DNA of 64,000 nucleotides. It comes from Lysobacterales bacterium PRO7 (GTDB taxonomy: Bacteria > Pseudomonadota > Gammaproteobacteria > Xanthomonadales > Rhodanobacteraceae). Positions 4,399 through 56,533 of this stretch are shown here, piece by piece. Numbering within the stretch: position 1 is the first letter of the stretch; every line of letters begins with the position of its first letter. Location: the NCBI GenBank assembly GCA_021404785.1, contig QWHH01000001.1, forward strand, positions 156,760-220,759, in the 5' to 3' direction. The position numbers and the translations under genes were made by a program. The notes under the pieces are model-generated. The model saw nothing but the letters and a program-made list of their open reading frames with translations. It did no database searches and was not told the DNA's origin.

Positions 4399-4803
4399 AT
4401 GAACGAAGTAATCGAAAGCGGCCCGTTCGCGGGCTTCGAGGTGGTTCACCGCTACACGCGCGCGCAGGCCATCGACGATGGCGTGCTGGTGGACGTGACG
4501 ACGCAGGCCAAGGGGTGCGGGTTTCGCATTCCGGTCGCCATGACCTCGGCGCTGTTCAACGACTGCTGGAAATGGGCGGAAGCCGTGGCGCAGGGCGATG
4601 AGGAACCGAGCGGCGAGCGTTTTGTGAATTGGGTGCTGCGTTTCGCATGCGAAACGATCCGGGCGTCCAAGCAGACCGGCACGGATCGGCTGCCGCTGAC
4701 GTTGAGCTATTTCGCGGGCTACCCCGTACAGGCGTTCGTCCACATCGGCCCCGGCGATACGAGAGAGCCAGTCGCAACGCTCATGTACCCCGGCGAAGAA
4801 TGA
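4399..4803 (+). CDS. DUF6573-like mobile-element protein
   Basis: RBS ggagga; motif HRYTRAQAIDDGVLVDVT; C-terminal GDTREPVATLMYPGE. Confidence 0.7.
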   Translation: MNEVIESGPFAGFEVVHRYTRAQAIDDGVLVDVTTQAKGCGFRIPVAMTSALFNDCWKWAEAVAQGDEEPSGERFVNWVLRFACETIRASKQTGTDRLPLTLSYFAGYPVQAFVHIGPGDTREPVATLMYPGEE

Positions 4804-6812: not shown

Positions 6813-7082
6813 ATGGATAAGCGAAGTATTGCGTTGATCGCGGCGGCGGGTGGACTTGTTGTCGGAGTCGTCGGCTCCAGTGTGTTGCATCACGCGCAGG
6901 CGGCGGCTCCCGCGAACATGGTGTGCATGACGGACGATCCGGTGCAGGACGCGAAGGTGGATGCGATCGTCAAACAGCTGCACGCGCACGATAACGACAA
7001 GTACATACCGCAGAAGGTGTACCCGATCGGCGAGTTGCCAAAGCCGCCACCGCCCGCTCCAAAGAAAGATTCCGCGCAGTAA
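6813..7082 (+). CDS. Small exported or membrane-anchored hypothetical protein (89 aa)
   Basis: MDKRSIALIAAAGGLVVGVVGSSVLHHAQA signal-like N-terminus; Pro-rich tail. Confidence 0.6.
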   Translation: MDKRSIALIAAAGGLVVGVVGSSVLHHAQAAAPANMVCMTDDPVQDAKVDAIVKQLHAHDNDKYIPQKVYPIGELPKPPPPAPKKDSAQ

Positions 7083-7204
7083 GTGAGCAGGGCCAGCAAT
7101 CGTGTCGTGTGTGGCATCGCACACGACGGCGTTACCGGCAGGACGAGGCCGTCCTGCACCAAGGGGAGAATTGCATATCTCCCCTTGAACCCCATCGCAT
7201 CAAA

Positions 7205-7570
7205 TTATGCGCGACGCTTGGTTGGTCGAAGGTGCTGACACAATTTTTGTGCGACATCCATAACGACCAATCGATCCGCCTCATGCAGATCGCTTAGCGA
7301 CAACGAAAGGGCAAGTGCTTGGTCGTCTGCACGAACAGAGCTTGCCGTCAAAAGTTCCGCCAAGGGGACTCGCAGAATTTGGGCGAGTGCATCAAGGGTT
7401 TTGAGCGATGCTGCGGCTGTTCCGCGTTCATATCGAGAAATTGTTTCCGTGGCGACGCCGATTTTTTCGGCGAGGTCGGCCTGCGTCCAGCTTCGCTTGT
7501 TACGCAATACAGCGAGATTCTGTCCAAGCTGTTTCGCGAACGCTGACCACTTGCTATCCCGAGATGCCAT
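7205..7570 (-). CDS. XRE-family helix-turn-helix regulator
   Basis: LRNKRSWTQADLAEKIGVATETISRYERG...SLKTLDALAQIL; start placed at the internal ATG 7570. Confidence 0.9.
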   Translation of the reverse strand: MASRDSKWSAFAKQLGQNLAVLRNKRSWTQADLAEKIGVATETISRYERGTAAASLKTLDALAQILRVPLAELLTASSVRADDQALALSLSLSDLHEADRLVVMDVAQKLCQHLRPTKRRA

Positions 7571-8075
7571 AGCTGCTGTCCTGAAGGGCAACGGCCATCG
7601 TTGTGCAGCGGCATAGCGACGCACAGGATATAATTTGTTGATAGACAACATTTCATGTTGTATTGTGCGTTCGCTCGAATACTCGAGCACGTCACCCAGA
7701 AGCTAGCGAAACTCGTGTCTCACGGTTACAGCATTACTTTTGCCTGTATCCAACAGGATGCAGTGACATCGCCCGCACTCCGCGCTGGCAGCCATGCCGC
7801 TGCGAAAGCACTCTCGGCATTCGACGCGGTGATGATGCAGCGCTTGCAGCCGCTCGCCGCACGTCCGCGCAGTGAACTCGCCGGCGCCGATTATCTGGAT
7901 GCGAGCGTGCTGGACTACGCCTTGGCCAAGGCGCTGGAGGCCGCGTTTCCGGAAAGCGGTGGTGAGCCGCCGGCACCGCTGGCGCGCGAATCTTTTATAT
8001 TGTGCATTACTGATGTGAATTCCAGCTCAGTTGTCGGGGTTTCTCCAGTAAATGCCGAGCGTGTTGGATGATGGT

Positions 8076-8099
8076 GTACCTGTAAATATTTACAGGTAC
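8076..8099. promoter_or_regulatory. Perfect 24-bp palindrome, lux-box-like (also fits the CTGT-N8-ACAG LexA pattern)
   Basis: GTACCTGTAAATATTTACAGGTAC; core 8078-8097 matches the V. fischeri lux box ACCTGTAGGATCGTACAGGT at 14/20; candidate -10 TAATCT at 8119-8124. Confidence 0.75.
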
Positions 8100-8147
8100 G
8101 CTGATTCGAGGGAGTGGGTAATCTGAACCATCGTTGAGGGGAAACCA

Positions 8148-11100
8148 ATGTCGTTGCGAATCGGAGTGGACTCCGCGCGTCTTGCCGCGCGGGGAGGAGT
8201 CGGGAGCGCGTTTTGTCTGCTGTCTTTCATCGCCGGACTGTCGGTTCCGGCACCCGCCCACGCCAGCGTGCAGTTGCAAGGCTTCGGGGTCACGCCATCC
8301 GGCCCGGGAATCAAGCCTGCCGCCACCGGTGCCGGCACACCCGCGCCGGTTCCGGCGACGTGGAGCGAACCGTTGCCATCGGCCGACGTGTATTCCGATT
8401 CGGTCGGCGCGACACCAGCAACCTATCGGACAGATGAGAGCGGTGCAGCGACGTATTCCGTGCCAATCTACGTGCCGCCGGGCACGGCGGGCCTCGTACC
8501 TGCGTTGTCGCTGGTGTACAACAACCGCGGCGCGAACGGCCCGATGGGACCGGGTTGGAGCCTGGGCGGCCTGTCGGCGATTTCGCGTTGTAAGAAGGCC
8601 ACCGAGTACGGCGATGGCGCCGGGCCGTTTCCTTCGGTCAATTTCGATGGCGTCGCCGCCGATCAAGCGTATTGCCTCGATGGCGCACGCCTGCTCGACC
8701 TGAACAATGGCGCGGGTAATTGTCCGGCCGGCCAGTCCGGCGACACCGCCCACGCGTTCGGCCTGGAACTGGATCCCGCCACGCGCGTGTGCGGCTATGC
8801 CAAGACCGGCATCACCGGCTACGCCTATTGGCTGGCGCAGCCCAAGGACGGCAGTTACCGCGTGTACGGCACGGGCGGCAATTCGGCGCTGGTCCACAAC
8901 GATGGGCAAGGCAACCCTGACGCCACCCAGTATTTCTCGTGGGCACTGAATCGTATTGCCGATACGACCGGCAATACGGTCGAGTTCAGCTACACGCAGA
9001 ACGCCGCCACCGGCGAGATGGATGTTGCCGAAGTCGACTACACCGGCAAGATGGCAATAAGCGGCGTACTCGCGGCCAGCCCGACGTTCACGCGCACGCC
9101 CTACGCGAAGGTCGTGTTTTCGTACGCGACGCTGCCGGCTGCCAGCCAGCGCATCGACTACGTGTCGGGCATGAAGCTCGCGCTCACGCAGCAGCTGACG
9201 ACCATCACGGTCAGCGGCCCATCCAACATCAACGGTGACATTGGCACGTCGCAGGTCGCGCGCACGTATCACCTGCGCTACGGCACGCCGACCGGCAGCG
9301 GTCTTTCGGCGCTGACCTCTTTGCAGGAGTGCGTGCCAAACGGCGCGGGCGAGGTGTGCTATCCACGCACGCAATTCACGTGGGACAACGCCAGCGTCCA
9401 TGCGCCCGGTTTTCCCGGCACGCCGTCCACGCAAAGCTATAGCGGTCTGCAATACGCGATCGACTACAAGGTCGGCGATGTGGATGGCGATGGCAGACAA
9501 GATTTAGTGTGGGTCAAGGATCAAAGCTGCGACAGCACGGGTTCCGGTGCCACGCGTTTCCAGATTTATGTGTCGCGCGCCACCGGCACCGGCTTTGCCA
9601 CGGCGGTCGCGACCGGCGTGTACCTGTCGCGTCCGCCGCAGACCGGCCAAGTCGCGCTGCCGACGTGCGGCGCCGACTGGCGTTCTTATCACTTCGATTC
9701 GCTGTGGTACCTGTACGATTTTTCCGGCGACGGCCGCGATGACCTGCTCGCCGCCAACGGCACGGCGTGGAACGGCACGGCGTGGACGGACATGACGTGG
9801 AAGATTTATCCGGCCATCGCCTCAGGTACGGATTACACCTTCGATCACGCCAATCCGGTTGCAACCGGAATTCCGTCATGGCCGAGCGACGACGGCCTGT
9901 TCCTCGACGAAAACGCCGATGGCCTGCCGGATCTGATGGATTCGACGGCGCAGGGCATCATCACCTCGCACCTGTTGCAAAAGCAGCCATCTGGCGCCGC
10001 GCTCACGTTCAATTTTTCCGCGACCGCGACGCCCGTCGTGTTCACCACGCCGGTGTTTGGCGGCAGCACCTCGACACAGGAACTGGGCTTTTCCACCGGC
10101 GCGGGCCGCGACGTGCTCAATGCCGATCTCAATGGAGACGGCGCCGCCGACATGGTGTTGAAGGTGACGCAGGATACCTGCGGGACGGGCGGCATGGCTC
10201 CCAGCGCCCTGACCGCGCAACCCACGTTCAGTCCGTCCTCGATCCCGGCTTCGCCAACCTGCCATACGCGCTGGTACACCTTCCGCAACGACGGCATTCA
10301 GGCCGATGGCCTGCACATGACCTACGAGACCTTTATCGGCGACACGCTGACGGTGCCGGACGACGGCAGTTTCATCAATCTGGTCGATCTCAACGGCGAC
10401 GGCCAGACGGATCTCGTCTACACCAAACTGGTCAGCGGCAACTACACGTATTACTACCGCCTCAACGCCGGCAAGTCCGGCGACGCGGCCGCGACCGAGC
10501 GCTTCCTGCCGGAACAATCCACCGGCCTGACGCTTTCCACGAACTACGCCGAGCGCGTGCAGTTTCTCGATGTCAACGGCGATCACAAAATCGACCTGCT
10601 GTACTGGGATGGCGTCAGCGACCCCAGCGGCACCTATCCGCTCAAGGCGATGCTGTGGGGCACGACGGGTTTCGGCAGCGCAGTCGATGTCGGAAATTTC
10701 ACGCTCAACGCGATGAACCCGCTGTCGACGCAATCGTTCCTGATGGACGTCAACGGCGATGGTGGCCCGGATATGGTGACTTACGCCGGCGGCAGCCTGT
10801 CCGTGTTCGGCTACGGCCCGGCCTTCGGTGGCAACGATTTCGTCACGTCGGTCGTCAATGGCTTGGGTGCCTCGACCGGCATCACGTATTACCCACTGGC
10901 GTATACGTCCGGTTATGCGCGCGCCTACGACGGCCCGGGAAAGAGTTGGGGCCGCGGCTCGCCGGTGTTCGACGTGTTCTCGGCGATCTGGGTGGTACAC
11001 AGAGCATCGAGCAGTGCGCCGCTGGCGGGAGATTCCACTGCATTTCCGTCGTCGAGTGCCGTCGTTTATCGCTACTCGGGCGCGAAGATTCAGGCGGGAG

Positions 11101-14100
11101 GACGCGGCTTCCTCGGCTTCGCCACCGTACAAGCCGAGAACCAGCAGCCGACGCAGGATACGTCCAAGTACCTCGTCACGACCACCGAGTACCGGCAGGA
11201 TTTTCCGTACATCGGCCGGCCCGATCACACGGTGGCAGAACTCGAATCGACGCTGCAACCCGATCCGTGCGTGAGCTCGCCAGGTGATTCGTGCTTCGTG
11301 CACAACCCGCCGCCCTGCGGCAGCCACGGCGTCATCTGCAACATTGCGCAGAGCGCTTCGATCGGAGTCGGTGGTCAGGTGTTGAGCGACGCGCAAGACG
11401 ACTACACGAGTACGCCGGCGTTTGCACCCGGCACTGTGCAGCCGCTGATGCCGTACCTGTCCAGTTCCGTCGAACAGAAGTTTGACGTCGCGACGCCTGG
11501 GGCATCGAGCCACGAGATCACAAGTTCCTTCGGCGAAGACATCTACGGCAACGTCACAAGTTCCTCGGTGATCAGCAGCGAGTCCGGTGTTACCGACGAG
11601 TCCAAGACGACAACGAACATCTACGGCTGCACGGTGTCGCCGCCGACGAAGAACTGTTCGACGCTCAGTACCGAATGGCAGCGACTCGGTCGCTTGTCGC
11701 TCAGCACGGTCACGAGCAGCCGGCCCGGACAGACCAATAACCTGCGCCGCGCCAGTTTCGAGTACGACCCGACGACTCTACTGCGCATCGCCGACATTCA
11801 AGGGCCTTACGACTCGACCGACGAACCGATCGTCAACGTCCTCAAGACGATGAGTCTGCGAACGGACCTCATTCGCGATGCTGATGGCAACGTGATTGAG
11901 CAGGTGCAGTGCAGCACCTATCACTTCGCCAATCGCGCGGCCTGCACGGATTTGACCAATTTTCAGCAACGCCAGTGGCAATCCGATCCGACCAAGATTC
12001 AGCGCTACGCCAAGTGGAGCTATGAATCGTTGGGACGCTTCGAGCTGTACAAGCTTGCACCATTCTATTCAGCGAGTGCGGCGAATAACACGGACGAGAA
12101 CATCGCCGAGTACGTCGGCATCGCCTTGTCCGGCAGTTCGCCGATGCGGGCGTTTACGCCGCAGGCGATTCTTCCCGTCGTCGTCAACCGCGACGTGTTC
12201 GGCAATCCGGCGAACAAGGTATCCGCCGCCGGCGATCAGTGGTCGATGGTGTATGGCACATTGGGCCGTGCGTATTTTGCCGAAGACGTAACCACTGGCG
12301 GCTTCTCGCGCACGACGTACACGTGGTGCAAGGATGCAAACAGCACCGACATTCCCGCCGCGGCGCCTCGCGCCAACTGCCCGGTCGGTGGCGTCTATCG
12401 CGTAACGACCGACAGCACCGCCAGCAGCACGTATGCGGGCCAGAGCATCGCGCCGACGACGTGGGCGTACTTCGACGTGCTCGGACGCGAGATATTGCGC
12501 ACCAAGCGCATCTACCAGCAAAGTGCTACCAGTAAGTTTCACTGGTCGAGCGTGGCCACGACCTACGACAGCACGGGCCGTAACGCGACGGTGTCCACGC
12601 CGTATCTTTCCATCGACCCGACGACGACGCAGACCGGCGTGGCATCCAGCCGCGCGGGCACATTGCAGACCGGCGCCAGCGCGCCAGGCACCGCGACCGC
12701 GACCTACGATGCAGTGGATCGGGCCACTGATCAAAGCCATCCGGAAGAGGCGGCGAACACGCCCAGCGATTCGACGTGGAATTATTCGACGTTGACCACG
12801 ACCGCAACCAATCCGCGCGGCTACAAAACGCAGCAGGTCAAGAACGCGCGCGACGAAGTCATGCAGATCGCCGCGCCGTTCGGCCAGAGCAATGCGCTGA
12901 CCGTCTCCTATGGCCGCGATGCGGTGGGCAATCTGACCAGCATTTCGCGCACGCCGGCGGACGGTAGTTCGGCCGGCCATCTCATTCAGACCTCGATGAT
13001 CTACGATCGTCTGGGCCGCAAGACCGGCATGACCGATCCGGACAAGGGCGGCTGGACATACAGCTACAACGCACTTGGCGAACCCGTCCAACAAATCGAC
13101 GCGAAGGGCCAGACGCAGAACCAGTACCGCGATGCGCTGGGCCGGCTGTATCTGCGCACGGAGAACCGGAGTAACGGCAGTGGCGGCTTCACCTCGGAGC
13201 CGTCTGGCGCGTGGGAGTTCGACACGGCGTTGCGCAGCGACGGATCGACGATTCTGGGCGTAATCCACAGCGAGTCCAACGGCATTGGCGGCTTCACGCG
13301 CACCACGGAATACAACGACTATGGCCGCGTGGATCACTCGGTCACGCAGATGGACGGATACTCGTATACCGAGCGTCAGACTTGGGATCAGTTCGGTCGT
13401 CCGTTCCAGCACTTCGACCCGAGCACCACGGTATCCAACGCGGGCGAACTGACGATCTACTCGACCGACGGCTATCCGATCCAGACCCAGGAAGCCGCCG
13501 ACAGCGTAAACGGCGTTTACTACGACACGGTGATCGCCCTGTCCGAACGCGGTCAGGTGACGGACGAGATTTTCCACAACAACGCGGCATTGGAGAGTAC
13601 ACGCACGTTCGATCACGCCACCGGGCGCGCCTTGACCATCGACGCGGGCAGCGGCGCGCTGCAGAACTGGAGCTACGACTACGATAAACACAGCAATGTG
13701 CTGTATCGGCTGAACCACGCGACCGGCTACAACCTGCGCGAGGACTTCACCTACGACAATCTGGATCGGCTGCAAACCGTGAAGCTGACGGTCAACGGCG
13801 CGGTGCAGGGCACGGTGACGAGCGCCTACGATCAACTGGGCAATCCCACCAGCCGGGGCAGCCAAAGCTGGACGTATGCCACGCTGGAAACCGGCTGCAC
13901 CCAATATGCCGGGCCGCACGCGGCGAGCAAACTCGGCAGCTCCACGTACTGCTACGACGCGAACGGCAATCAGACCACGGCCAACTACGGCGGCGGACAA
14001 ACCCGCACGATCACGTACACCGGCTACGACTTGCCGGCGCAGATTGCGACGAACGGCTACCCGAGCAATGCCACGGAAAGTTTTGCCTATGCGCCGGATC

Positions 14101-15725
14101 GCGGCATGTTCAAGCGCGTGGAAGGCATCACCGGCGGCACGAACGACAATATCTTCTGCAACGGCTTTGACACCACTACGAACACCTGTCCGAACACCGC
14201 GAGCAGTGCCGCGACGACGTACTACGTGGGCAACGTCGAGGCGCGCATCAGCGGCAGCAGCACGACGACCAAGCGCTATATCGGCGGCTACCTCGTCGTC
14301 ACCACGACGAACACGAATCCGACGCCGGTCTACGCCTACCTGTTCCGCGATGCGCTCGGCTCCATCGACGTGATTGCCAACGAACTGGCGCAAATACAGC
14401 AGCGGCAGAGCTTCGACGTGTGGGGCAATCGCAGAGACGCGAGCGCCAGCGGCGGCTGGGGCTTGCTGCCCACGGCCACGGCGGCGAGCTTCGATACCAG
14501 TCGAACCTTCCAGGGCTACACCGGACACCAGCAACTCGATCCGGTAGGCCTAGTTCACATGAAGGGCCGCCTCTACGATCCCCAACTGGGCCGGTTTATC
14601 CAAGCCGACCCGATGACGGAACGCGATCCCACGCAGGGGCTGAATCGCTACAGCTATGTCCTCAACAACCCGATGAGCCTCACAGACCCGAGCGGGGATC
14701 TCAGTTTTCGGCAAATACTTGGCATCGCGATCGCTGTTGTGGCAGCTTACTTCGGACAATACGAACTTTCGCGCGATGCGCTGGCGTGGAGCTTTGGTGT
14801 ATCGGTGGCCGGCGGCTTCCTGTCCGCCTACGTGGCGACGGGAAGTCTGAAAGCGGGACTGTGGGGCGCGTTTGCGGCTGGAGTATTCTGGGGCATCGGC
14901 ACGGCATTTTCGGACGTGGCCGGAGGACCCATGCAAGACGGCTCGGCCATGACGATGCGCTACAGCACGGGCAGCTTCGCGGCGAAGATCGCCGCGCATG
15001 CGGCTGGCGGCGGCGTCATCAGCAGCCTTGAAGGCGGTAATTTTGGATCGGGATTTTTGGCTGCCGGCGCGACAGAAGTATTGTCGCCAGCAATCGAGAA
15101 AATGGACAATGTGCCAGGGCAAATCATGGCTGCGGCTATGGTTGGTGGCACCGTCTCGAAGATAAGCGGGGGTCGATTTGCCACAGGTGCCGAAACTGCA
15201 CTATTTCAAGAATTGTTCAATCACGTTGTTCACAGCGCGATGCAGGAGGCATTAGCCAAGAACTATAGCGAGGACAAGCCTTACTACCATAGATACGGCG
15301 GCGAGGGCGAAGGCGACTGGGCAGTTTGCGTGCGCAGCGACGCGTGGTGCACTCAGCCCAACGGCTATGCAGCGTTGATCAATGGCTTTGCCTACCCTGG
15401 GCAGGATCACCCTGTCGAAGACGGTAGCAGTGAGGAAGTCTGGTTCGCTGGAGTAAGCGCTGGTCACATTTATACTTTTACCGAACCGGATACGTACTCA
15501 ATTTTCAATTTGACTGCTCCCGACCATATTTTCTACAGCGGCTACGTCTGGCGAAGCGTGGTATGGGAGGGTGACACCCTATACTTGCGGACATATGGCG
15601 AAGGTAATGATTCAGGTTTCTTGAGTTGGTTCGGCAACATGGAGCTTTGGAAACCTGGGTTTAATCAATACAACTACCAGTTCCGTTATCAGATGATCCA
15701 GAACTGGCTGAAGGAGCAACCATGA
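8148..15725 (+). CDS. rhs: Giant RHS/YD-repeat polymorphic toxin: signal peptide, SpvB-like domain, FG-GAP/VCBS repeats, RHS core, C-terminal payload
   Basis: GAATYSVPIYVPPGTAGLVPALSLVY, repeated GDVDGDGRQD/DLNGDG motifs, YDRLGR/YDQLGN repeats, GYTGHQQLD, GRFIQADP, NNPMSLTDPSG; RBS gagggg. Confidence 0.95.
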   Translation: MSLRIGVDSARLAARGGVGSAFCLLSFIAGLSVPAPAHASVQLQGFGVTPSGPGIKPAATGAGTPAPVPATWSEPLPSADVYSDSVGATPATYRTDESGAATYSVPIYVPPGTAGLVPALSLVYNNRGANGPMGPGWSLGGLSAISRCKKATEYGDGAGPFPSVNFDGVAADQAYCLDGARLLDLNNGAGNCPAGQSGDTAHAFGLELDPATRVCGYAKTGITGYAYWLAQPKDGSYRVYGTGGNSALVHNDGQGNPDATQYFSWALNRIADTTGNTVEFSYTQNAATGEMDVAEVDYTGKMAISGVLAASPTFTRTPYAKVVFSYATLPAASQRIDYVSGMKLALTQQLTTITVSGPSNINGDIGTSQVARTYHLRYGTPTGSGLSALTSLQECVPNGAGEVCYPRTQFTWDNASVHAPGFPGTPSTQSYSGLQYAIDYKVGDVDGDGRQDLVWVKDQSCDSTGSGATRFQIYVSRATGTGFATAVATGVYLSRPPQTGQVALPTCGADWRSYHFDSLWYLYDFSGDGRDDLLAANGTAWNGTAWTDMTWKIYPAIASGTDYTFDHANPVATGIPSWPSDDGLFLDENADGLPDLMDSTAQGIITSHLLQKQPSGAALTFNFSATATPVVFTTPVFGGSTSTQELGFSTGAGRDVLNADLNGDGAADMVLKVTQDTCGTGGMAPSALTAQPTFSPSSIPASPTCHTRWYTFRNDGIQADGLHMTYETFIGDTLTVPDDGSFINLVDLNGDGQTDLVYTKLVSGNYTYYYRLNAGKSGDAAATERFLPEQSTGLTLSTNYAERVQFLDVNGDHKIDLLYWDGVSDPSGTYPLKAMLWGTTGFGSAVDVGNFTLNAMNPLSTQSFLMDVNGDGGPDMVTYAGGSLSVFGYGPAFGGNDFVTSVVNGLGASTGITYYPLAYTSGYARAYDGPGKSWGRGSPVFDVFSAIWVVHRASSSAPLAGDSTAFPSSSAVVYRYSGAKIQAGGRGFLGFATVQAENQQPTQDTSKYLVTTTEYRQDFPYIGRPDHTVAELESTLQPDPCVSSPGDSCFVHNPPPCGSHGVICNIAQSASIGVGGQVLSDAQDDYTSTPAFAPGTVQPLMPYLSSSVEQKFDVATPGASSHEITSSFGEDIYGNVTSSSVISSESGVTDESKTTTNIYGCTVSPPTKNCSTLSTEWQRLGRLSLSTVTSSRPGQTNNLRRASFEYDPTTLLRIADIQGPYDSTDEPIVNVLKTMSLRTDLIRDADGNVIEQVQCSTYHFANRAACTDLTNFQQRQWQSDPTKIQRYAKWSYESLGRFELYKLAPFYSASAANNTDENIAEYVGIALSGSSPMRAFTPQAILPVVVNRDVFGNPANKVSAAGDQWSMVYGTLGRAYFAEDVTTGGFSRTTYTWCKDANSTDIPAAAPRANCPVGGVYRVTTDSTASSTYAGQSIAPTTWAYFDVLGREILRTKRIYQQSATSKFHWSSVATTYDSTGRNATVSTPYLSIDPTTTQTGVASSRAGTLQTGASAPGTATATYDAVDRATDQSHPEEAANTPSDSTWNYSTLTTTATNPRGYKTQQVKNARDEVMQIAAPFGQSNALTVSYGRDAVGNLTSISRTPADGSSAGHLIQTSMIYDRLGRKTGMTDPDKGGWTYSYNALGEPVQQIDAKGQTQNQYRDALGRLYLRTENRSNGSGGFTSEPSGAWEFDTALRSDGSTILGVIHSESNGIGGFTRTTEYNDYGRVDHSVTQMDGYSYTERQTWDQFGRPFQHFDPSTTVSNAGELTIYSTDGYPIQTQEAADSVNGVYYDTVIALSERGQVTDEIFHNNAALESTRTFDHATGRALTIDAGSGALQNWSYDYDKHSNVLYRLNHATGYNLREDFTYDNLDRLQTVKLTVNGAVQGTVTSAYDQLGNPTSRGSQSWTYATLETGCTQYAGPHAASKLGSSTYCYDANGNQTTANYGGGQTRTITYTGYDLPAQIATNGYPSNATESFAYAPDRGMFKRVEGITGGTNDNIFCNGFDTTTNTCPNTASSAATTYYVGNVEARISGSSTTTKRYIGGYLVVTTTNTNPTPVYAYLFRDALGSIDVIANELAQIQQRQSFDVWGNRRDASASGGWGLLPTATAASFDTSRTFQGYTGHQQLDPVGLVHMKGRLYDPQLGRFIQADPMTERDPTQGLNRYSYVLNNPMSLTDPSGDLSFRQILGIAIAVVAAYFGQYELSRDALAWSFGVSVAGGFLSAYVATGSLKAGLWGAFAAGVFWGIGTAFSDVAGGPMQDGSAMTMRYSTGSFAAKIAAHAAGGGVISSLEGGNFGSGFLAAGATEVLSPAIEKMDNVPGQIMAAAMVGGTVSKISGGRFATGAETALFQELFNHVVHSAMQEALAKNYSEDKPYYHRYGGEGEGDWAVCVRSDAWCTQPNGYAALINGFAYPGQDHPVEDGSSEEVWFAGVSAGHIYTFTEPDTYSIFNLTAPDHIFYSGYVWRSVVWEGDTLYLRTYGEGNDSGFLSWFGNMELWKPGFNQYNYQFRYQMIQNWLKEQP

Positions 15726-16471
15726 TGCGCATCGTGATTGCAGTCTTGTTGAGCCTTGCTATGAGCAGTTGCAGCAGCAAATCGTTTAACCCGGTAGCTC
15801 GATTCGATATTCGAGCATCAGATGTCGATCAAGCGAAGGTGATCGAGACCATGAAGAAATTTGCTGGCCGGGAAGGTTTCAAAATCTTTGCGAGAGACGA
15901 TATGCCTAAGCAAGGCCGCTTCGTATCTCAGCTCGATCTTCGGCGTGCCGACGGTGTTGCCGTAAGTACAAGCAATTTCATGAAGGCTGACACGCTTCAA
16001 ACTTTCTTCTACGCAGAAAAGCCCGGTGCGGACTGGCAACCCGTGAAGGTCGCATTGCAGCGCGAAATTGCCGCCGCCCTGGGTGGTCGCGGGAAGATCG
16101 TGGAGGTTCCAGTTAAATCAGCGCCTGCCCGAAGCAGTCCATCTACTGTCCTTGCTACGTTTCGTTTCCGCATTACGGATGGTCAGCAGTCTTCCTTATC
16201 CGCGGCGCTCAAAGCATTCGCGAATGCGAACGGGTTCAAAATGCGAAATTTTCCAAACAAGACCGGAAATGGCTTCACGGCAGAAATGTCGCGACAGGGC
16301 TTGCAAGTGATCATCGCCGATCCACTTGAACCGGAGATATTTGACATTTGGGTTGACGAAAACGGCAACGAGGCAGTGTCGGCGACGACAATTGAAGCGC
16401 TCTCGCGTTCCCTGAAGAGCGCGCTTGCGCAAGTTCCCGGTTACGCGGAATTGCCCGACAGGAATCCATGA
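15722..16471 (+). CDS. Candidate cognate immunity lipoprotein with an internally duplicated domain
   Basis: ATGA overlap with the rhs stop; lipobox-like LAMSSC; reduced GC. Confidence 0.7.
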   Translation: MMRIVIAVLLSLAMSSCSSKSFNPVARFDIRASDVDQAKVIETMKKFAGREGFKIFARDDMPKQGRFVSQLDLRRADGVAVSTSNFMKADTLQTFFYAEKPGADWQPVKVALQREIAAALGGRGKIVEVPVKSAPARSSPSTVLATFRFRITDGQQSSLSAALKAFANANGFKMRNFPNKTGNGFTAEMSRQGLQVIIADPLEPEIFDIWVDENGNEAVSATTIEALSRSLKSALAQVPGYAELPDRNP

Positions 16472-16672
16472 CTACATTTAGCCCCGTTGAGCGAATCTGG
16501 CAAGCTGAAGGCCCGATGCTCGACCGCTCATGGCGCTCGATGCGGATAGGGATGGAAAGTACACACTGACCTACCATTTGGCGGACGTTGTTCTGGTGAG
16601 CTGAGTCCAAAAATGTATTCCAGCGCAGTTGGCCTCAGAATTGGCCTAAAAGCGGAACGAGCATGTGCGCAC

Positions 16673-17182
16673 ATGAAGACGTTACCAAGAGTATTTCTTA
16701 GTATTCTGTTCTCAACCTTGGTCGCGGCGTGCGCGAGCATCGAAGCGACCGGGCATTTATTCGACGGACAGGTCGAGCGACGCGAAGGCTATGGAACGCT
16801 CGTACTATATAGGCCGCCACTATTTGTCGGGAGTGCTTGGTTTCCAACGGTCCGAATAAACGGGACGCCCGTGGCCAAGTTGGTGAGCGGCGGTTACACG
16901 TCCATCGCACTGCCACCAGGCCGGTACCACATTTCAGGGAACGGTCAATTCGATGATCTGTACGAAGCAGATTTTGCGATAAAGACGGACAGTACGACGT
17001 TTGCCGAATTCCAGTTCGATTTGCAAGGCAATGGAGGGGTGACGCCCATCGCTGGTGCTTTTGTGCCATCCGTGGGCGTGCAGATCAAAAGCATTCGATG
17101 GGTCGTGACTGAAGGGCCTGACGTGGCGCCTCCGGGGTTGGCCGACTGTCGATATTTCGACCCAATTGTTCGGGCCTTGTAG
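16673..17182 (+). CDS. DUF2846-like lipoprotein
   Basis: Lipobox LVAAC; LVLYRPP..G...VRINGTPVAKLVSGGYTSIALPPGRYHI. Confidence 0.75.
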   Translation: MKTLPRVFLSILFSTLVAACASIEATGHLFDGQVERREGYGTLVLYRPPLFVGSAWFPTVRINGTPVAKLVSGGYTSIALPPGRYHISGNGQFDDLYEADFAIKTDSTTFAEFQFDLQGNGGVTPIAGAFVPSVGVQIKSIRWVVTEGPDVAPPGLADCRYFDPIVRAL

Positions 17183-17229
17183 TTCGCGCTGAAAAATCGC
17201 GACATCCGAGGAAAAGAGGGGAGAAGGCC

Positions 17230-17658
17230 GTGCGCGTGACTTCGAGACTCTGTGACGTTGTTGCGCTGGCCGCGCTATTGGCAGGCTGCAGTCCATGCCA
17301 CGATCTAAAGGACGGCCCCGGTCTGCTCGGCGGAGGTTTTAAGGACCAGGAGATTTCACCTGGCCTTTTTGGGATTCTCGTGAAATCCGACGCGGCACTA
17401 TGGACGAACCGCGACGCTGTACGCGCGACTTGGTCACGACGCGCACACGAATTGTGCGGCGGCGATTACGTCGAGCTCGCGTCACAGGAACTTGACGAGA
17501 CGCTCAAACCGATCAACAGCGAAGTGTTGCGCGACCACGTATCGAGCCGAATCGCTTTCGCTCTGTGTAAGTCATCGAAATTGTCACAACAGGAAGCGTT
17601 GGATGTCATCGAACGGCTTGGCATGCTCCCCCCACCGCCGCGCGCGGCACCGATGTAA
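17230..17658 (+). CDS. Hypothetical lipoprotein
   Basis: GTG start after gagaagg; lipobox LLAGC; WSRRAHELCGG. Confidence 0.7.
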   Translation: MRVTSRLCDVVALAALLAGCSPCHDLKDGPGLLGGGFKDQEISPGLFGILVKSDAALWTNRDAVRATWSRRAHELCGGDYVELASQELDETLKPINSEVLRDHVSSRIAFALCKSSKLSQQEALDVIERLGMLPPPPRAAPM

Positions 17659-17728
17659 CGTAGTTACGTGCCCGGAGTTACGGCCTCTGCGACGCAAAAA
17701 AGCCAGGTAACGAGCGTTCCACGCACGA

Positions 17729-18604
17729 TTGAAATATTCGACACGTGAAATATTCGACACGTCCCGGCTCCTTCGCCATGCTGCTGGAATCTGCTCATTT
17801 ATCCGTCTGAATGCTTTCACGTGCGGCCTTCTTGCTTGTCATTCTTCTCGAACAGACTTCGCCAAGGCAAAGAGCTTGGCGACAGATGCCGTGAACGCGG
17901 GTGATGTCATGGCGAATCAGCTCCTGGGGAGGATCTACCAGGAGGGTCTTGGGGTATCACCTGACGTGGATACGGCCTTTGTGTCTTTTCCCAAAGCCGC
18001 TGATGCTGGCGATCCCGTCGCTCAGTACGATGTAGCACGGGCCTATTATTTCGGCGAAGGTGTCTCCAAGAACATCGAACTAGCGTATCGCTTTGCGAGG
18101 AGCGCATATTGCGGGAAAGTAAAGCCATCCGCGCTGATTGTTTCGCGAGAATATTTTGACAACTCGGATTCTGCTGAGAGCGTTACCACCGGCATCCGGG
18201 TATTGGACGACTTGGCCGCAGACGGTGATGGAGACGCTTGCCTGGTCATTTCAGATATCTACCTGTCCTCGAAGTACAACCGGAAGGATCCAAGCAAGGC
18301 GATCATCTACCTAAGGTGTGCGGCGAAAGCTGGATTGGTTCGGGGTAAGTACTTGTATGGAGCAACATTGCTTCGGTATGGGAAAAGCCATGAAGATTTC
18401 AACGCCGCTGAGCAATATCTTACGGAAGCGGCGAATAGCGGCAGCGTGGATGCGGCGTTCGACCTGGGAGTTGCATACCAACGTGGTATAGAACTCCAGG
18501 GCGATGTCGAAAAAGCACGCCATTGGCTAGAGGTTGCTGTTGAGCGTGGTAATGTTGACGCGGCACAAATGTTGAAAACTATGAGCCCACACGCTGACCA
18601 ATGA
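17729..18604 (+). CDS. Sel1-like repeat protein; start uncertain, possibly frameshifted
   Basis: Repeats LGRIYQEGLGV, AADAGDPVAQYDVARAYYFGEGV, AANSGSVDAAFDLGVAYQRG. Confidence 0.85.
   Translation: MKYSTREIFDTSRLLRHAAGICSFIRLNAFTCGLLACHSSRTDFAKAKSLATDAVNAGDVMANQLLGRIYQEGLGVSPDVDTAFVSFPKAADAGDPVAQYDVARAYYFGEGVSKNIELAYRFARSAYCGKVKPSALIVSREYFDNSDSAESVTTGIRVLDDLAADGDGDACLVISDIYLSSKYNRKDPSKAIIYLRCAAKAGLVRGKYLYGATLLRYGKSHEDFNAAEQYLTEAANSGSVDAAFDLGVAYQRGIELQGDVEKARHWLEVAVERGNVDAAQMLKTMSPHADQ
17730..17761. repeat. Perfect 16-bp tandem duplication
   Basis: TGAAATATTCGACACG x2. Confidence 0.95.
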
Positions 18605-19177
18605 AATCAGCGCACAGTCCGGAATTCTGATTCGCGCCGGGTCGATGAAACTGCTTGACGAAGTACACAGATGGGTCGCCTTACGGGCCGCGCTCTCGGG
18701 CTGCGCCGCGAGTCGGTTCCCGTCTCGCCCAAGAGCCGGAGCAGTGCGTCCCACAATCGCGGCGACGTGAGGGCGTCGTCAAAATCGCCGCACTTCCCCT
18801 AAGTCATCCTTGAACTCGAATATCCACGGTGCAGCCCGCCTCGCCGGGCGCGCAGCGTAATTTCTTGCCATCCTCATTCGGAATGCGCTGCGAATTTTGC
18901 GCTATTGGCCGTTGCAACTCGCGGTAGCGCCTGCCTTGTGGCACGACGTTAGAGCTTGGTGGACGCCATCTTCTCCGCCGGGTTGAGCGGGTGCTTTAGG
19001 CGGGTGATCCTGGGCGGGGCGGCATCCGCTGCAAAAGCCACACGGCCCCGTGTAGTCGCTTCGCTCCGGCCCGCGCCAGGCCGTGTTGCGCTGCGCGCTC
19101 CCTTGCACCGCACGCCGTGAACCACGCCGAAGCTGATCCCCGCGCACCCGCGCAATCAACCCAACGGAGAAAACATC

Positions 19178-46766: not shown

Positions 46767-46788
46767 TATTTCGCATGCGAAATCCCCC

Positions 46789-55801: not shown

Positions 55802-56533
55802 TTATACCGGGCTGATCAGTCCGAGGCGCATCGCCTTGGCGATCGCGAGCGTACGGCCGCGTGCGTCGAGTTTGGTTGCGGCGTTAGCCAAGTGGAAGTT
55901 GACCGTGGCGACGCTGATCGAGAGCAATTGACCGATCTCCCAGCTCGACTTGCCCTTGGCCGCCCAGCTCAGGCAGTCGCGTTCGCGCCCGGTAAGCTTT
56001 GGAACCTCGGTTGTGGCGTTGCGTTCCGGAAGCAGGATCGACGGCGCCACGCTGTGCAGGTACGCCGCAAAAAGCTGCGTGTACGGTTCCACCCGGCGCT
56101 GCTCGATGGTCGACATCGGCTGATCGCGCGAGAAGGACACGATCGCATAATCGAATGCGCCGGTGCGATCGAAGATCGGCGCGGTCACGCCCGAACGGGC
56201 GCCGACATCCCACCGCTGGCCCATGACAGACCTTTCCATCCGGTCCATGCGCTTATCGAACGGCTGCGGGCGGTGCAGATCCCACGCCAGGGCGCGGCGT
56301 ACGCGGCCGACGGCATTGATCAGCGGATCGTAGCCGCGATGCCAGCGTTGCTGCTTGTAGCTATCAACCACGCCGGGCGGGTAGTTCGTCAGTGCGGTGT
56401 CTGGGCCGGCCAAGCCATAGATCCAAATCGAAAATCCGTATAGATCGCAGAAGCGCTCGGCAGCGGCGCGTAGATCATCGACGCTGCCACAGGCTATGAC
56501 CGCATTGAGCAAATCCAAGTCGAATCCCAACAT
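55802..56533 (-). CDS. luxR: LuxR-family regulator with autoinducer-binding domain (LuxR solo; no luxI in the window)
   Basis: NYP...Y...DP...W...G ligand domain; LTGRERDCLSWAAKGKSSWEIGQLLSISVATVNFHL HTH. Confidence 0.93.
   Translation of the reverse strand: MLGFDLDLLNAVIACGSVDDLRAAAERFCDLYGFSIWIYGLAGPDTALTNYPPGVVDSYKQQRWHRGYDPLINAVGRVRRALAWDLHRPQPFDKRMDRMERSVMGQRWDVGARSGVTAPIFDRTGAFDYAIVSFSRDQPMSTIEQRRVEPYTQLFAAYLHSVAPSILLPERNATTEVPKLTGRERDCLSWAAKGKSSWEIGQLLSISVATVNFHLANAATKLDARGRTLAIAKAMRLGLISPV

Follow-up and report, generated by a model that had tools for sequence, protein, structure and literature searches.

The stretch of DNA analyzed here, 64,000 nucleotides from the genome of Lysobacterales bacterium PRO7 (genome G000; 19 contigs, 2.81 Mb, 99.5% complete, 63% GC), is referred to in the following as the window (G000:C16:156760-220759). 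The window carries a conjugative element equipped with RepA, ParB and trb genes, which we treat as an integrative and conjugative element (ICE), and on it the gene for a giant RHS toxin, rhs. Immediately upstream of rhs lies a perfect palindrome, GTACCTGTAAATATTTACAGGTAC. Judged by sequence comparison, this palindrome is very probably the operator of a dimeric activator of the LuxR superfamily with a GerE-type helix-turn-helix (HTH) domain, i.e., a lux-type box in a class II promoter position. The class to which the box belongs is the operator class of the chromosomal luxR-rsaM-luxI quorum-sensing systems found in relatives of the same genus, a system that G000 itself does not possess. If the box works as we propose, the conjugative element would keep a polymorphic toxin unexpressed as long as there is no LuxR-type activator, and interbacterial killing would then be tied to cell density, to the signals of neighbors or to a phosphorelay of the host.

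The palindrome and the versions of the rhs promoter

A direct read of the window finds the palindrome at positions 8076 to 8099, with exactly the sequence and the coordinates that had been claimed for it in the original prediction, a note made from the letters of this DNA alone. According to an inverted-repeat check, the 24 bp form a perfect palindrome whose arms measure 12 nt each, with a spacer of 0. Its 20-bp core (8078-8097; ACCTGTAAATATTTACAGGT) is a perfect dyad with CTG-N10-CAG arms that extends to the full 24 bp, as expected of a lux-type dyad, and nested in it is a CTGT-N8-ACAG core at 8080-8095. The palindrome begins 5 bp past the stop codon of a 138-aa open reading frame (ORF) and ends 48 bp ahead of the rhs start codon, the ATG at position 8148. 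It is the sole CTGT-N8-ACAG site, and also the sole exact ACCTGT-N8-ACAGGT site, of the 64-kb window, and it is one of only 7 perfect palindromes with arms of at least 12 nt in the 2.81-Mb genome, where shuffled sequences yield 0-1.

A candidate -10 hexamer, TAATCT, is present on the plus strand at 8119-8124, 21 nt past the 20-bp box. The hexamer at the -35 position, GTACGC (8096-8101), lies 17 bp upstream of TAATCT and is poor and unusable. Further downstream, the ribosome-binding site of rhs (GAGGGGA, 8136-8142, plus strand) precedes the ATG by 5 nt. From the 21-nt spacing between box and -10, the center of the box is predicted to lie at about -43 relative to the presumed transcriptional start, and LuxR-type activators of Vibrio fischeri work from a class II position near -42.5. 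The layout that the original prediction had proposed, with the -10 at 8119-8124, GTACGC as a poor -35 and the box in a class II position, is borne out as far as sequence can tell, and the luxI promoters of the relatives share both its architecture and its spacing. We infer that a GerE-type activator attaches as a dimer to the dyad, at about -43, and brings RNA polymerase to a promoter with a -10 and no -35; the bound activator would then switch on rhs together with the genes that follow it in the same orientation. With no activator bound, this promoter should be weak, leaving read-through from an upstream promoter candidate (7638-7666) that may be under XRE control.

Four more versions of this promoter were recovered together with homologues of the rhs N-terminus and of the small upstream ORF, and an alignment (A2) was made of all five. 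The box reads GCACCTGTAACTATTTACAGGTAT in the L076 version, CGGCCTGTCATTTTTGACAGGTGC in the L061-type version, which is represented by many contigs, TATCCTGTAGTTATTTACAGGTAT in the L111 version and TACCCTGTAGACCTTTACAGGTGT in the L110 version, whose contig is labelled Casimicrobiaceae. The -10 hexamer is TAATCT in the window, L076 and L061-type versions, TAGATT in L111 and TAAATT in L110. Invariant islands of the alignment are CCTGT, ACAGGT, the T-A...T of the -10, the block TGTTGAGGGG that includes the ribosome-binding site, and the ATG; the sequence between these islands and upstream of them diverges. All five versions keep CCTGT-N8-ACAGG with a TAnnnT hexamer 21-22 nt downstream. In the L061 type, a symmetric A>C / T>G pair of changes relative to the window version leaves the dyad intact and brings it closer to the consensus half-site of the genus.

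The box class in the genus relatives

The genus relatives of G000, apparently members of Rudaea (Rhodanobacteraceae), provide an independent frame for the site, since following the one further AT-centred CTGT-N8-ACAG site of G000 (C11:70997) leads to loci at which genes for a canonical LuxR, a DUF4902/RsaM protein and LuxI stand in the order luxR-rsaM-luxI. Examples of this cluster are L024/L033 (G017), L027/L028 (G025) and L034 (G026), from genomes with 3-10 boxes apiece. Autoind_bind proteins occur in 15 of the 54 genus genomes and LuxI in 11 of the 54. At every luxR-rsaM-luxI locus, a box of the form GTA(A/C)CTGT(C/A)A-N4-T(T/G)ACAG(T/G)TAC is located upstream of luxI, and at several of these loci a second box is found directly 3' of luxR. 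The luxI-promoter boxes and the ICE site have a 24-bp architecture in common that includes the outer GTA...TAC. They also agree in their geometry: in the luxI promoters of the genus, the 20-bp box is followed after exactly 21 nt by a conserved T(T/C)CAAT, and in the rhs promoter by TAATCT after 21 nt.

A weight matrix trained solely on 11 luxI-promoter boxes from other genomes gives the ICE site 35.1 bits, inside the training range of 30.6-40.0, and makes it the top match in the 2.8-Mb genome. The runners-up in G000 are the C11 site with 22.6 bits and a third with 12.8, and the maxima of five shuffles range from 13 to 22; the ICE site is far beyond chance. The lux-box reading put forward in the original prediction is supported from two sides, the luxI-promoter boxes of the relatives and the footprint retained in five diverged rhs promoters; binding and activation by a LuxR-superfamily protein are probable.

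Across 55 genus genomes, whose relatedness means that the counts are not independent of each other, the pattern CTGTNA-N4-TNACAG occurs 10, 6, 6, 5, 8, 7, 10, 1, 8, 4, 3 and 7 times in the twelve genomes that possess a cluster-type LuxR (mean about 6) and mostly 0 times in the remainder, against a reversed-pattern background of 0-4. Two exceptions to the link with cluster-type LuxR stand out, G019 with 9 boxes and the 60%-complete G029 with 4. No Autoind_bind protein was detected in G019, an assembly that is 96% complete but fragmented; either its luxR locus is unassembled, or another reader of the boxes exists. According to a Pfam scan, the genes beside the other boxes in the cluster genomes are mostly unannotated, with one histidine kinase and one TonB receptor among them and no toxin genes. 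We found no paper on quorum sensing by Rudaea in the literature searched, so that, as far as this literature shows, a Rudaea quorum-sensing operator and the approximate size of its regulon are defined here for the first time.

Three findings weigh against our interpretation of the palindrome. The cluster-type LuxR, presumably the native reader of this box class, is missing from G000. Conservation of the box at rhs homologues, suggested in the original prediction as a check, gave a divided answer: it is kept in the five diverged ICE promoter versions and absent at a homologue with 55% identity in another Rhodanobacteraceae metagenome-assembled genome (L060), so that box and rhs are linked in this ICE lineage only. 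Nor is there a box upstream of the weak rhs paralogues of genus genomes (L005-L008). Finally, the symmetric change and two A>G changes seen among the promoter versions would also fit a hairpin in the plus-strand RNA, a compatibility that follows from the site being a palindrome.

Candidate readers and rival explanations

Two proteins of G000 come into question as readers of the box, one chromosomal and one encoded by the ICE. With six cluster-LuxR queries, the GerE domains of G000 closest to the DNA-binding domains of the cluster LuxRs are those of the ICE-borne LuxR solo and of a receiver-GerE (REC-GerE) response regulator (53-68 bits); for most queries there is effectively a tie between the two, and none of the remaining GerE domains of G000 scores above either. 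A third conceivable reader is a cluster-type LuxR in other hosts of the element. These candidates are not mutually exclusive.

The REC-GerE regulator (332 aa; G000:C11:69844-70842, outside the window) would plug the ICE toxin promoter into a phosphorelay of the host instead of into sensing of acyl-homoserine lactones (AHLs), a proposal that we regard as tentative, at clearly less than even prospects. The only other high-scoring box of G000 (ACTGTAATTTTTTACAGT, C11:70997; collagen-gene box at C11:70993-71016) lies 155 bp past the stop codon of this regulator gene and upstream of a collagen-repeat gene. The entire locus (G000:C11:69844-73851; L003:3845-7852) consists of the regulator gene, the box and the gene for a 902-aa protein with collagen triple-helix repeats, and the collagen-gene box is kept at the orthologues in G065, G015, G014 and G026 and degenerate in G018. 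A box of at least 18 bits is found within about 1.2 kb of a REC-GerE orthologue in 7 of 12 genomes and in four gene arrangements, including regulator, box and GAF histidine kinase (G069) and regulator, hydrolase, box and next gene (G009, G077). Genomes contain only one to a few sites of this strength, and chance falls far short of explaining the linkage, with an estimate of about 1e-9 that allows for shared ancestry. REC-GerE orthologues are present in 11 other genus genomes, mostly of the small-genome clade of G000 without any LuxR, and exactly in those LuxR-less members that still keep boxes (G065, G018, G014, G015, G009 and G077). The DNA-binding domain of the regulator shares 44-50% identity with those of the cluster LuxRs by MAFFT and 48-56% by tblastn, a tie with the solo, and four of the five ICE box variants have the CTGTA.../...TACAG half-sites typical of the LuxR-less clade. 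Yet genomes with only the REC-GerE regulator hold about 1 box each, which equals background and provides no enrichment by count, so that the evidence for this regulator is positional. Furthermore, five orthologue loci have no nearby box, the adjacency might merely be left over from a LuxR regulon of an ancestor, and the regulator is not ICE-borne. Taken together, the REC-GerE regulator appears to be an equally good or better candidate than the ICE solo. By extension, the lux-box regulon in the Rudaea clade that lacks LuxR and LuxI may have been taken over by the REC-GerE phosphorelay regulator, with the ICE toxin promoter serving as a portable socket for whichever LuxR-superfamily activator a host provides. 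We offer this broader idea with considerable doubt. AHL quorum sensing would then drive the promoter in some hosts and a two-component signal would do so here, with the ICE solo as a possible fallback; if true, a mobile toxin would piggyback on an operator class of its host, and a quorum-sensing regulon would have been rewired to a non-AHL input.

The ICE solo (243 aa, minus strand, 55802-56533) combines the Pfam domains Autoind_bind and GerE. It had been named as the only LuxR of the window, correctly so, and it is indeed the sole Autoind_bind protein of the whole genome. A search for LuxI-type synthases, positive in 11 genus relatives, found none in G000, and any AHL signal would therefore be foreign; with no LuxI linked to it or elsewhere in the genome, the protein qualifies as an AHL-type LuxR solo. 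The proposal that this solo reads the box and turns on the ICE toxin in response to a signal that the cell does not make can consequently be upheld for the missing synthase, while the role of the solo as the reader is not established; we consider it rather unlikely on balance. In its favor, the solo is a conserved gene of the ICE backbone: at least 21 public contigs contain a copy with 97% identity that closes the trb operon, the order there being TrbI, DUF2274, two small genes, LuxR, a 170-aa gene and AlpA, after which at least two different flanks follow, and this recurrent order next to AlpA with varying flanks marks it as a backbone gene near one end of the element. Two ICE variants carry the solo along with rhs and the box, that of the window and a 76-kb contig (ERZ794925 NODE_193) carrying an L061-type rhs and a 97%-identical solo. 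Its recognition helix resembles those of LasR and RhlR, its DNA-binding domain is, as noted, among the two closest in G000 to the cluster LuxRs, and its closest solved relatives are RhlR, CviR, QscR, LasR, SdiA and TraR. Against the solo stands the finding that genomes with only solo-clade LuxRs (G076 with four copies, G061 and G072), whose helices are nearly the same, contain 0 CTGTNA-N4-TNACAG boxes, and that CCTGT-N8-ACAGG occurs in them 0, 1 and 0 times, i.e., at background, so that the box class does not accompany the solo clade in these genomes. No box lies near the solo gene or anywhere on the ICE besides the rhs site, and none was found near the solo-clade genes of G076, G061, G072 and G022. 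The solo shares no more than 26-32% identity with the cluster LuxRs and belongs to a separate clade (45-59% identity within it). Five of six pocket residues are kept (Y61, D70, P71, W85 and G113), but the position of TraR W57, which is V, L, I, W or F across the clade, is Val in the solo and makes its ligand uncertain. The ligand of the solo clade may not be a standard AHL.

The box might instead be read only by a cluster-type LuxR with its LuxI in other Rudaea hosts and be an orphan in G000, where rhs would live on read-through or basal transcription. We judge this unlikely. It would account for the way in which the box class tracks the cluster-type LuxR across the genus, for the near-consensus character of the window site including its outer GTA...TAC, and for the cluster-typical CTGTCA...TGACAG half-sites of the L061-type variant. 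It would also require a host that combines the ICE with the cluster, and none was seen, as the rhs module is absent from all 60 relatives searched, many of which are incomplete metagenome-assembled genomes, bins from which mobile elements are often missing. Moreover, the rhs element with an identical promoter is stably present in this LuxI-less species across several samples. Which of the two proteins of G000, the ICE solo or the host response regulator, acts at the box has implications for the way in which mobile elements connect their cargo to the regulation of a host.

Explanations outside the LuxR superfamily fare considerably worse. The original prediction had named a LexA box with colicin-like induction by DNA damage as its alternative. 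Like the SOS boxes of colicin genes, the site does have a CTGT-N8-ACAG core upstream of a toxin gene, and CTGT-N8-ACAG boxes precede lexA in two other families of the order. This alternative is refuted, and we assign it next to no probability. Neither the LexA DNA-binding domain (PF01726) nor Peptidase_S24 (PF00717) nor TIGR00498 has a match in the 99.5%-complete G000, and the DNA-binding-domain search, run on 61 genomes including G000, is positive for LexA in 41 of them. A recA gene is present in G000, and its upstream region has no CTGT-N8-ACAG box. The lexA operators of ten genus genomes read TACGTACA-TT-TGTACGTA in six and the xanthomonad-type TTAGTAGTAATATTACTAA (TTAGTA...TACTAA) in one, with CTGT-N8-ACAG in none; the lexA operator types of the genus are thus TACGTACATTTGTACGTA or TTAGTAGTAATATTACTAA, and neither is the motif of the palindrome. 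Two near-complete genomes that are LexA-positive and LuxR-negative (G027 and G030) contain zero boxes of the class described here. Unlike the colicin SOS boxes, the palindrome also lies upstream of the -10 instead of over it. As this case shows, a CTGT-N8-ACAG site must not be taken for an SOS box by default: LexA is missing from this host, and the operators of LexA in its genus are other ones. The distribution of LexA across the genus is patchy (22 of 36 sampled), and its TACGTACA-TT-TGTACGTA operator is a GTAC-type box (L100-L109).

The palindrome could also serve a regulator of the rhs module itself, either the XRE repressor or a 616-aa ParB-like protein, both of them DNA-binding and encoded at most 3.3 kb upstream, and palindromes are typical of XRE and of ParB/KorB sites. 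This is very improbable: the XRE gene is replaced by one or two non-homologous XRE genes while the box is kept, its own divergent promoter region carries another inverted repeat, there is no link between ParB-like proteins and the motif, and the motif occurs chromosome-wide in LuxR-cluster genomes that have no rhs module. A site of the CRP/FNR type was rejected by eye, as TGTAA-N4-TTACA does not fit TGTGA-N6-TCACA or TTGAT-N4-ATCAA. Slightly less credible still, and hardly to be expected, is a role at the RNA level, in which the transcript of the small ORF would carry at its 3' end a strong hairpin that serves as stabilizer, processing site or partial insulator. The region does fold strongly (-33 kcal/mol, z = -4.7), and the substitutions in the variants (A-T>C-G and A-T>G-T) would retain pairing on the plus strand. 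However, the hairpin has no U-tract and a terminator scan is negative, the region has no Rfam match, and the arms are invariant in sequence instead of covarying; the need for a hairpin would explain neither the 35-bit match to the luxI operators nor the conserved -10 at luxI-type spacing. No intrinsic terminator was found in a scan of positions 7100-8400, the apex of the hairpin being AT-rich and followed by GCTGATTCG. The predicted fold further pairs GAUGAUGG (8067-8074) with CCAUCGUU (8129-8136) in a larger stem around box and -10, which is not conserved in the L061 type.

Related regulatory systems and the rhs module

Our proposal that the palindrome is a lux-type operator finds its closest model in the lux box at the luxI promoter of V. 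fischeri, with which it shares the 20-bp dyad, the ACCTGTA...TACAGGT arms, a predicted center about 42-44 bp upstream of the expected start, a -10 without a -35, and a GerE-HTH dimer as the expected reader. It departs from that model in the central 6 bp, in the gene that it would regulate, a toxin of a mobile element and not an autoinducer synthase or lux operon, and in the absence of a cognate LuxI. The genus relatives resemble the LuxR-RsaM-LuxI modules of the CepIR/BraIR/TofIR type from Burkholderia in their gene order, with DUF4902/RsaM between luxR and luxI, and the boxes of these relatives are of the same class and have the same -10 spacing as the ICE site. What sets G000 apart is that it lost or never had such a module and that its site stands at the promoter of ICE cargo.

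LuxR-family regulators on mobile elements include TraR of Ti plasmids and TraR of ICEMlSym of strain R7A (for context, PMC5882170). As in the TraR elements, the LuxR-type gene of the ICE studied here stands beside trb mating-pore genes. The TraR regulators act on tra/trb and excision promoters via tra boxes; here, by contrast, the only box is that of the cargo toxin gene, with none on the ICE backbone, and the solo differs from TraR in having no partner synthase and a Val at the W57 pocket position.

Quorum-sensing control of interbacterial toxins is represented by contact-dependent inhibition (CDI) in Burkholderia thailandensis and by type VI secretion system (T6SS) or Rhs effectors under control of the CviR or LasR type. 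The element described here would resemble these cases in making an antagonistic polymorphic toxin conditional on a LuxR-type activator, as its sequence suggests. Unlike CDI and T6SS effectors, its toxin is a TcB/TcC-like fusion with a Sec signal that resides on an ICE, and its promoter draws on an operator class whose regulon is missing from the host. That quorum sensing can control antagonistic toxins and that conjugative elements can carry LuxR genes is already known. The literature searched contained no case of a lux-type box on a Sec-signal TcB/TcC-like RHS toxin borne by an ICE.

The rhs gene (plus strand, 8148-15725) encodes a giant exported polymorphic toxin of 2525 aa with SpvB, FG-GAP, TcdB_midN and RHS-repeat Pfam matches and is presumed to be the gene regulated from the palindrome; an ORF at 15722-16471 overlaps its stop codon. 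The rhs homologues in other ICE copies are 86-91% identical to it and have a different C-terminal and immunity region, as expected of a polymorphic toxin. Outside the swapped XRE region and the swapped rhs C-terminal toxin/immunity region, the module is likewise 86-91% identical between ICE variants. The swapping is cassette-like at both ends of rhs: window positions 7198-7773 and 15212-18786 are unrelated to L061 positions 7068-7627 and 15059-16868.

The small ORF that ends 5 bp before the palindrome (plus strand, 7655-8071) belongs to no Pfam family and is an annotated gene in public assemblies; its homologues (56-71% identity) are always located upstream of rhs. Divergent from it is the gene for the XRE-family HTH_3 regulator (minus strand, 7205-7570; 121 aa according to public assemblies), which is swapped for non-homologous XRE genes in ICE variants that retain the box. 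The promoter candidate of the divergent XRE/small-ORF intergenic region is sigma-70-like (plus strand, 7638-7666; TTGATA-17-TATTGT) and represents a consensus match only. Two further perfect palindromes of the window, one at 4639-4656 in a DUF6573 gene of the rhs module and one at 46768-46783 at the start of a TrbE-like gene, both contain TTTCGCATGCGAAA and may be a common site of an ICE regulator or a target of a methylase or restriction system.

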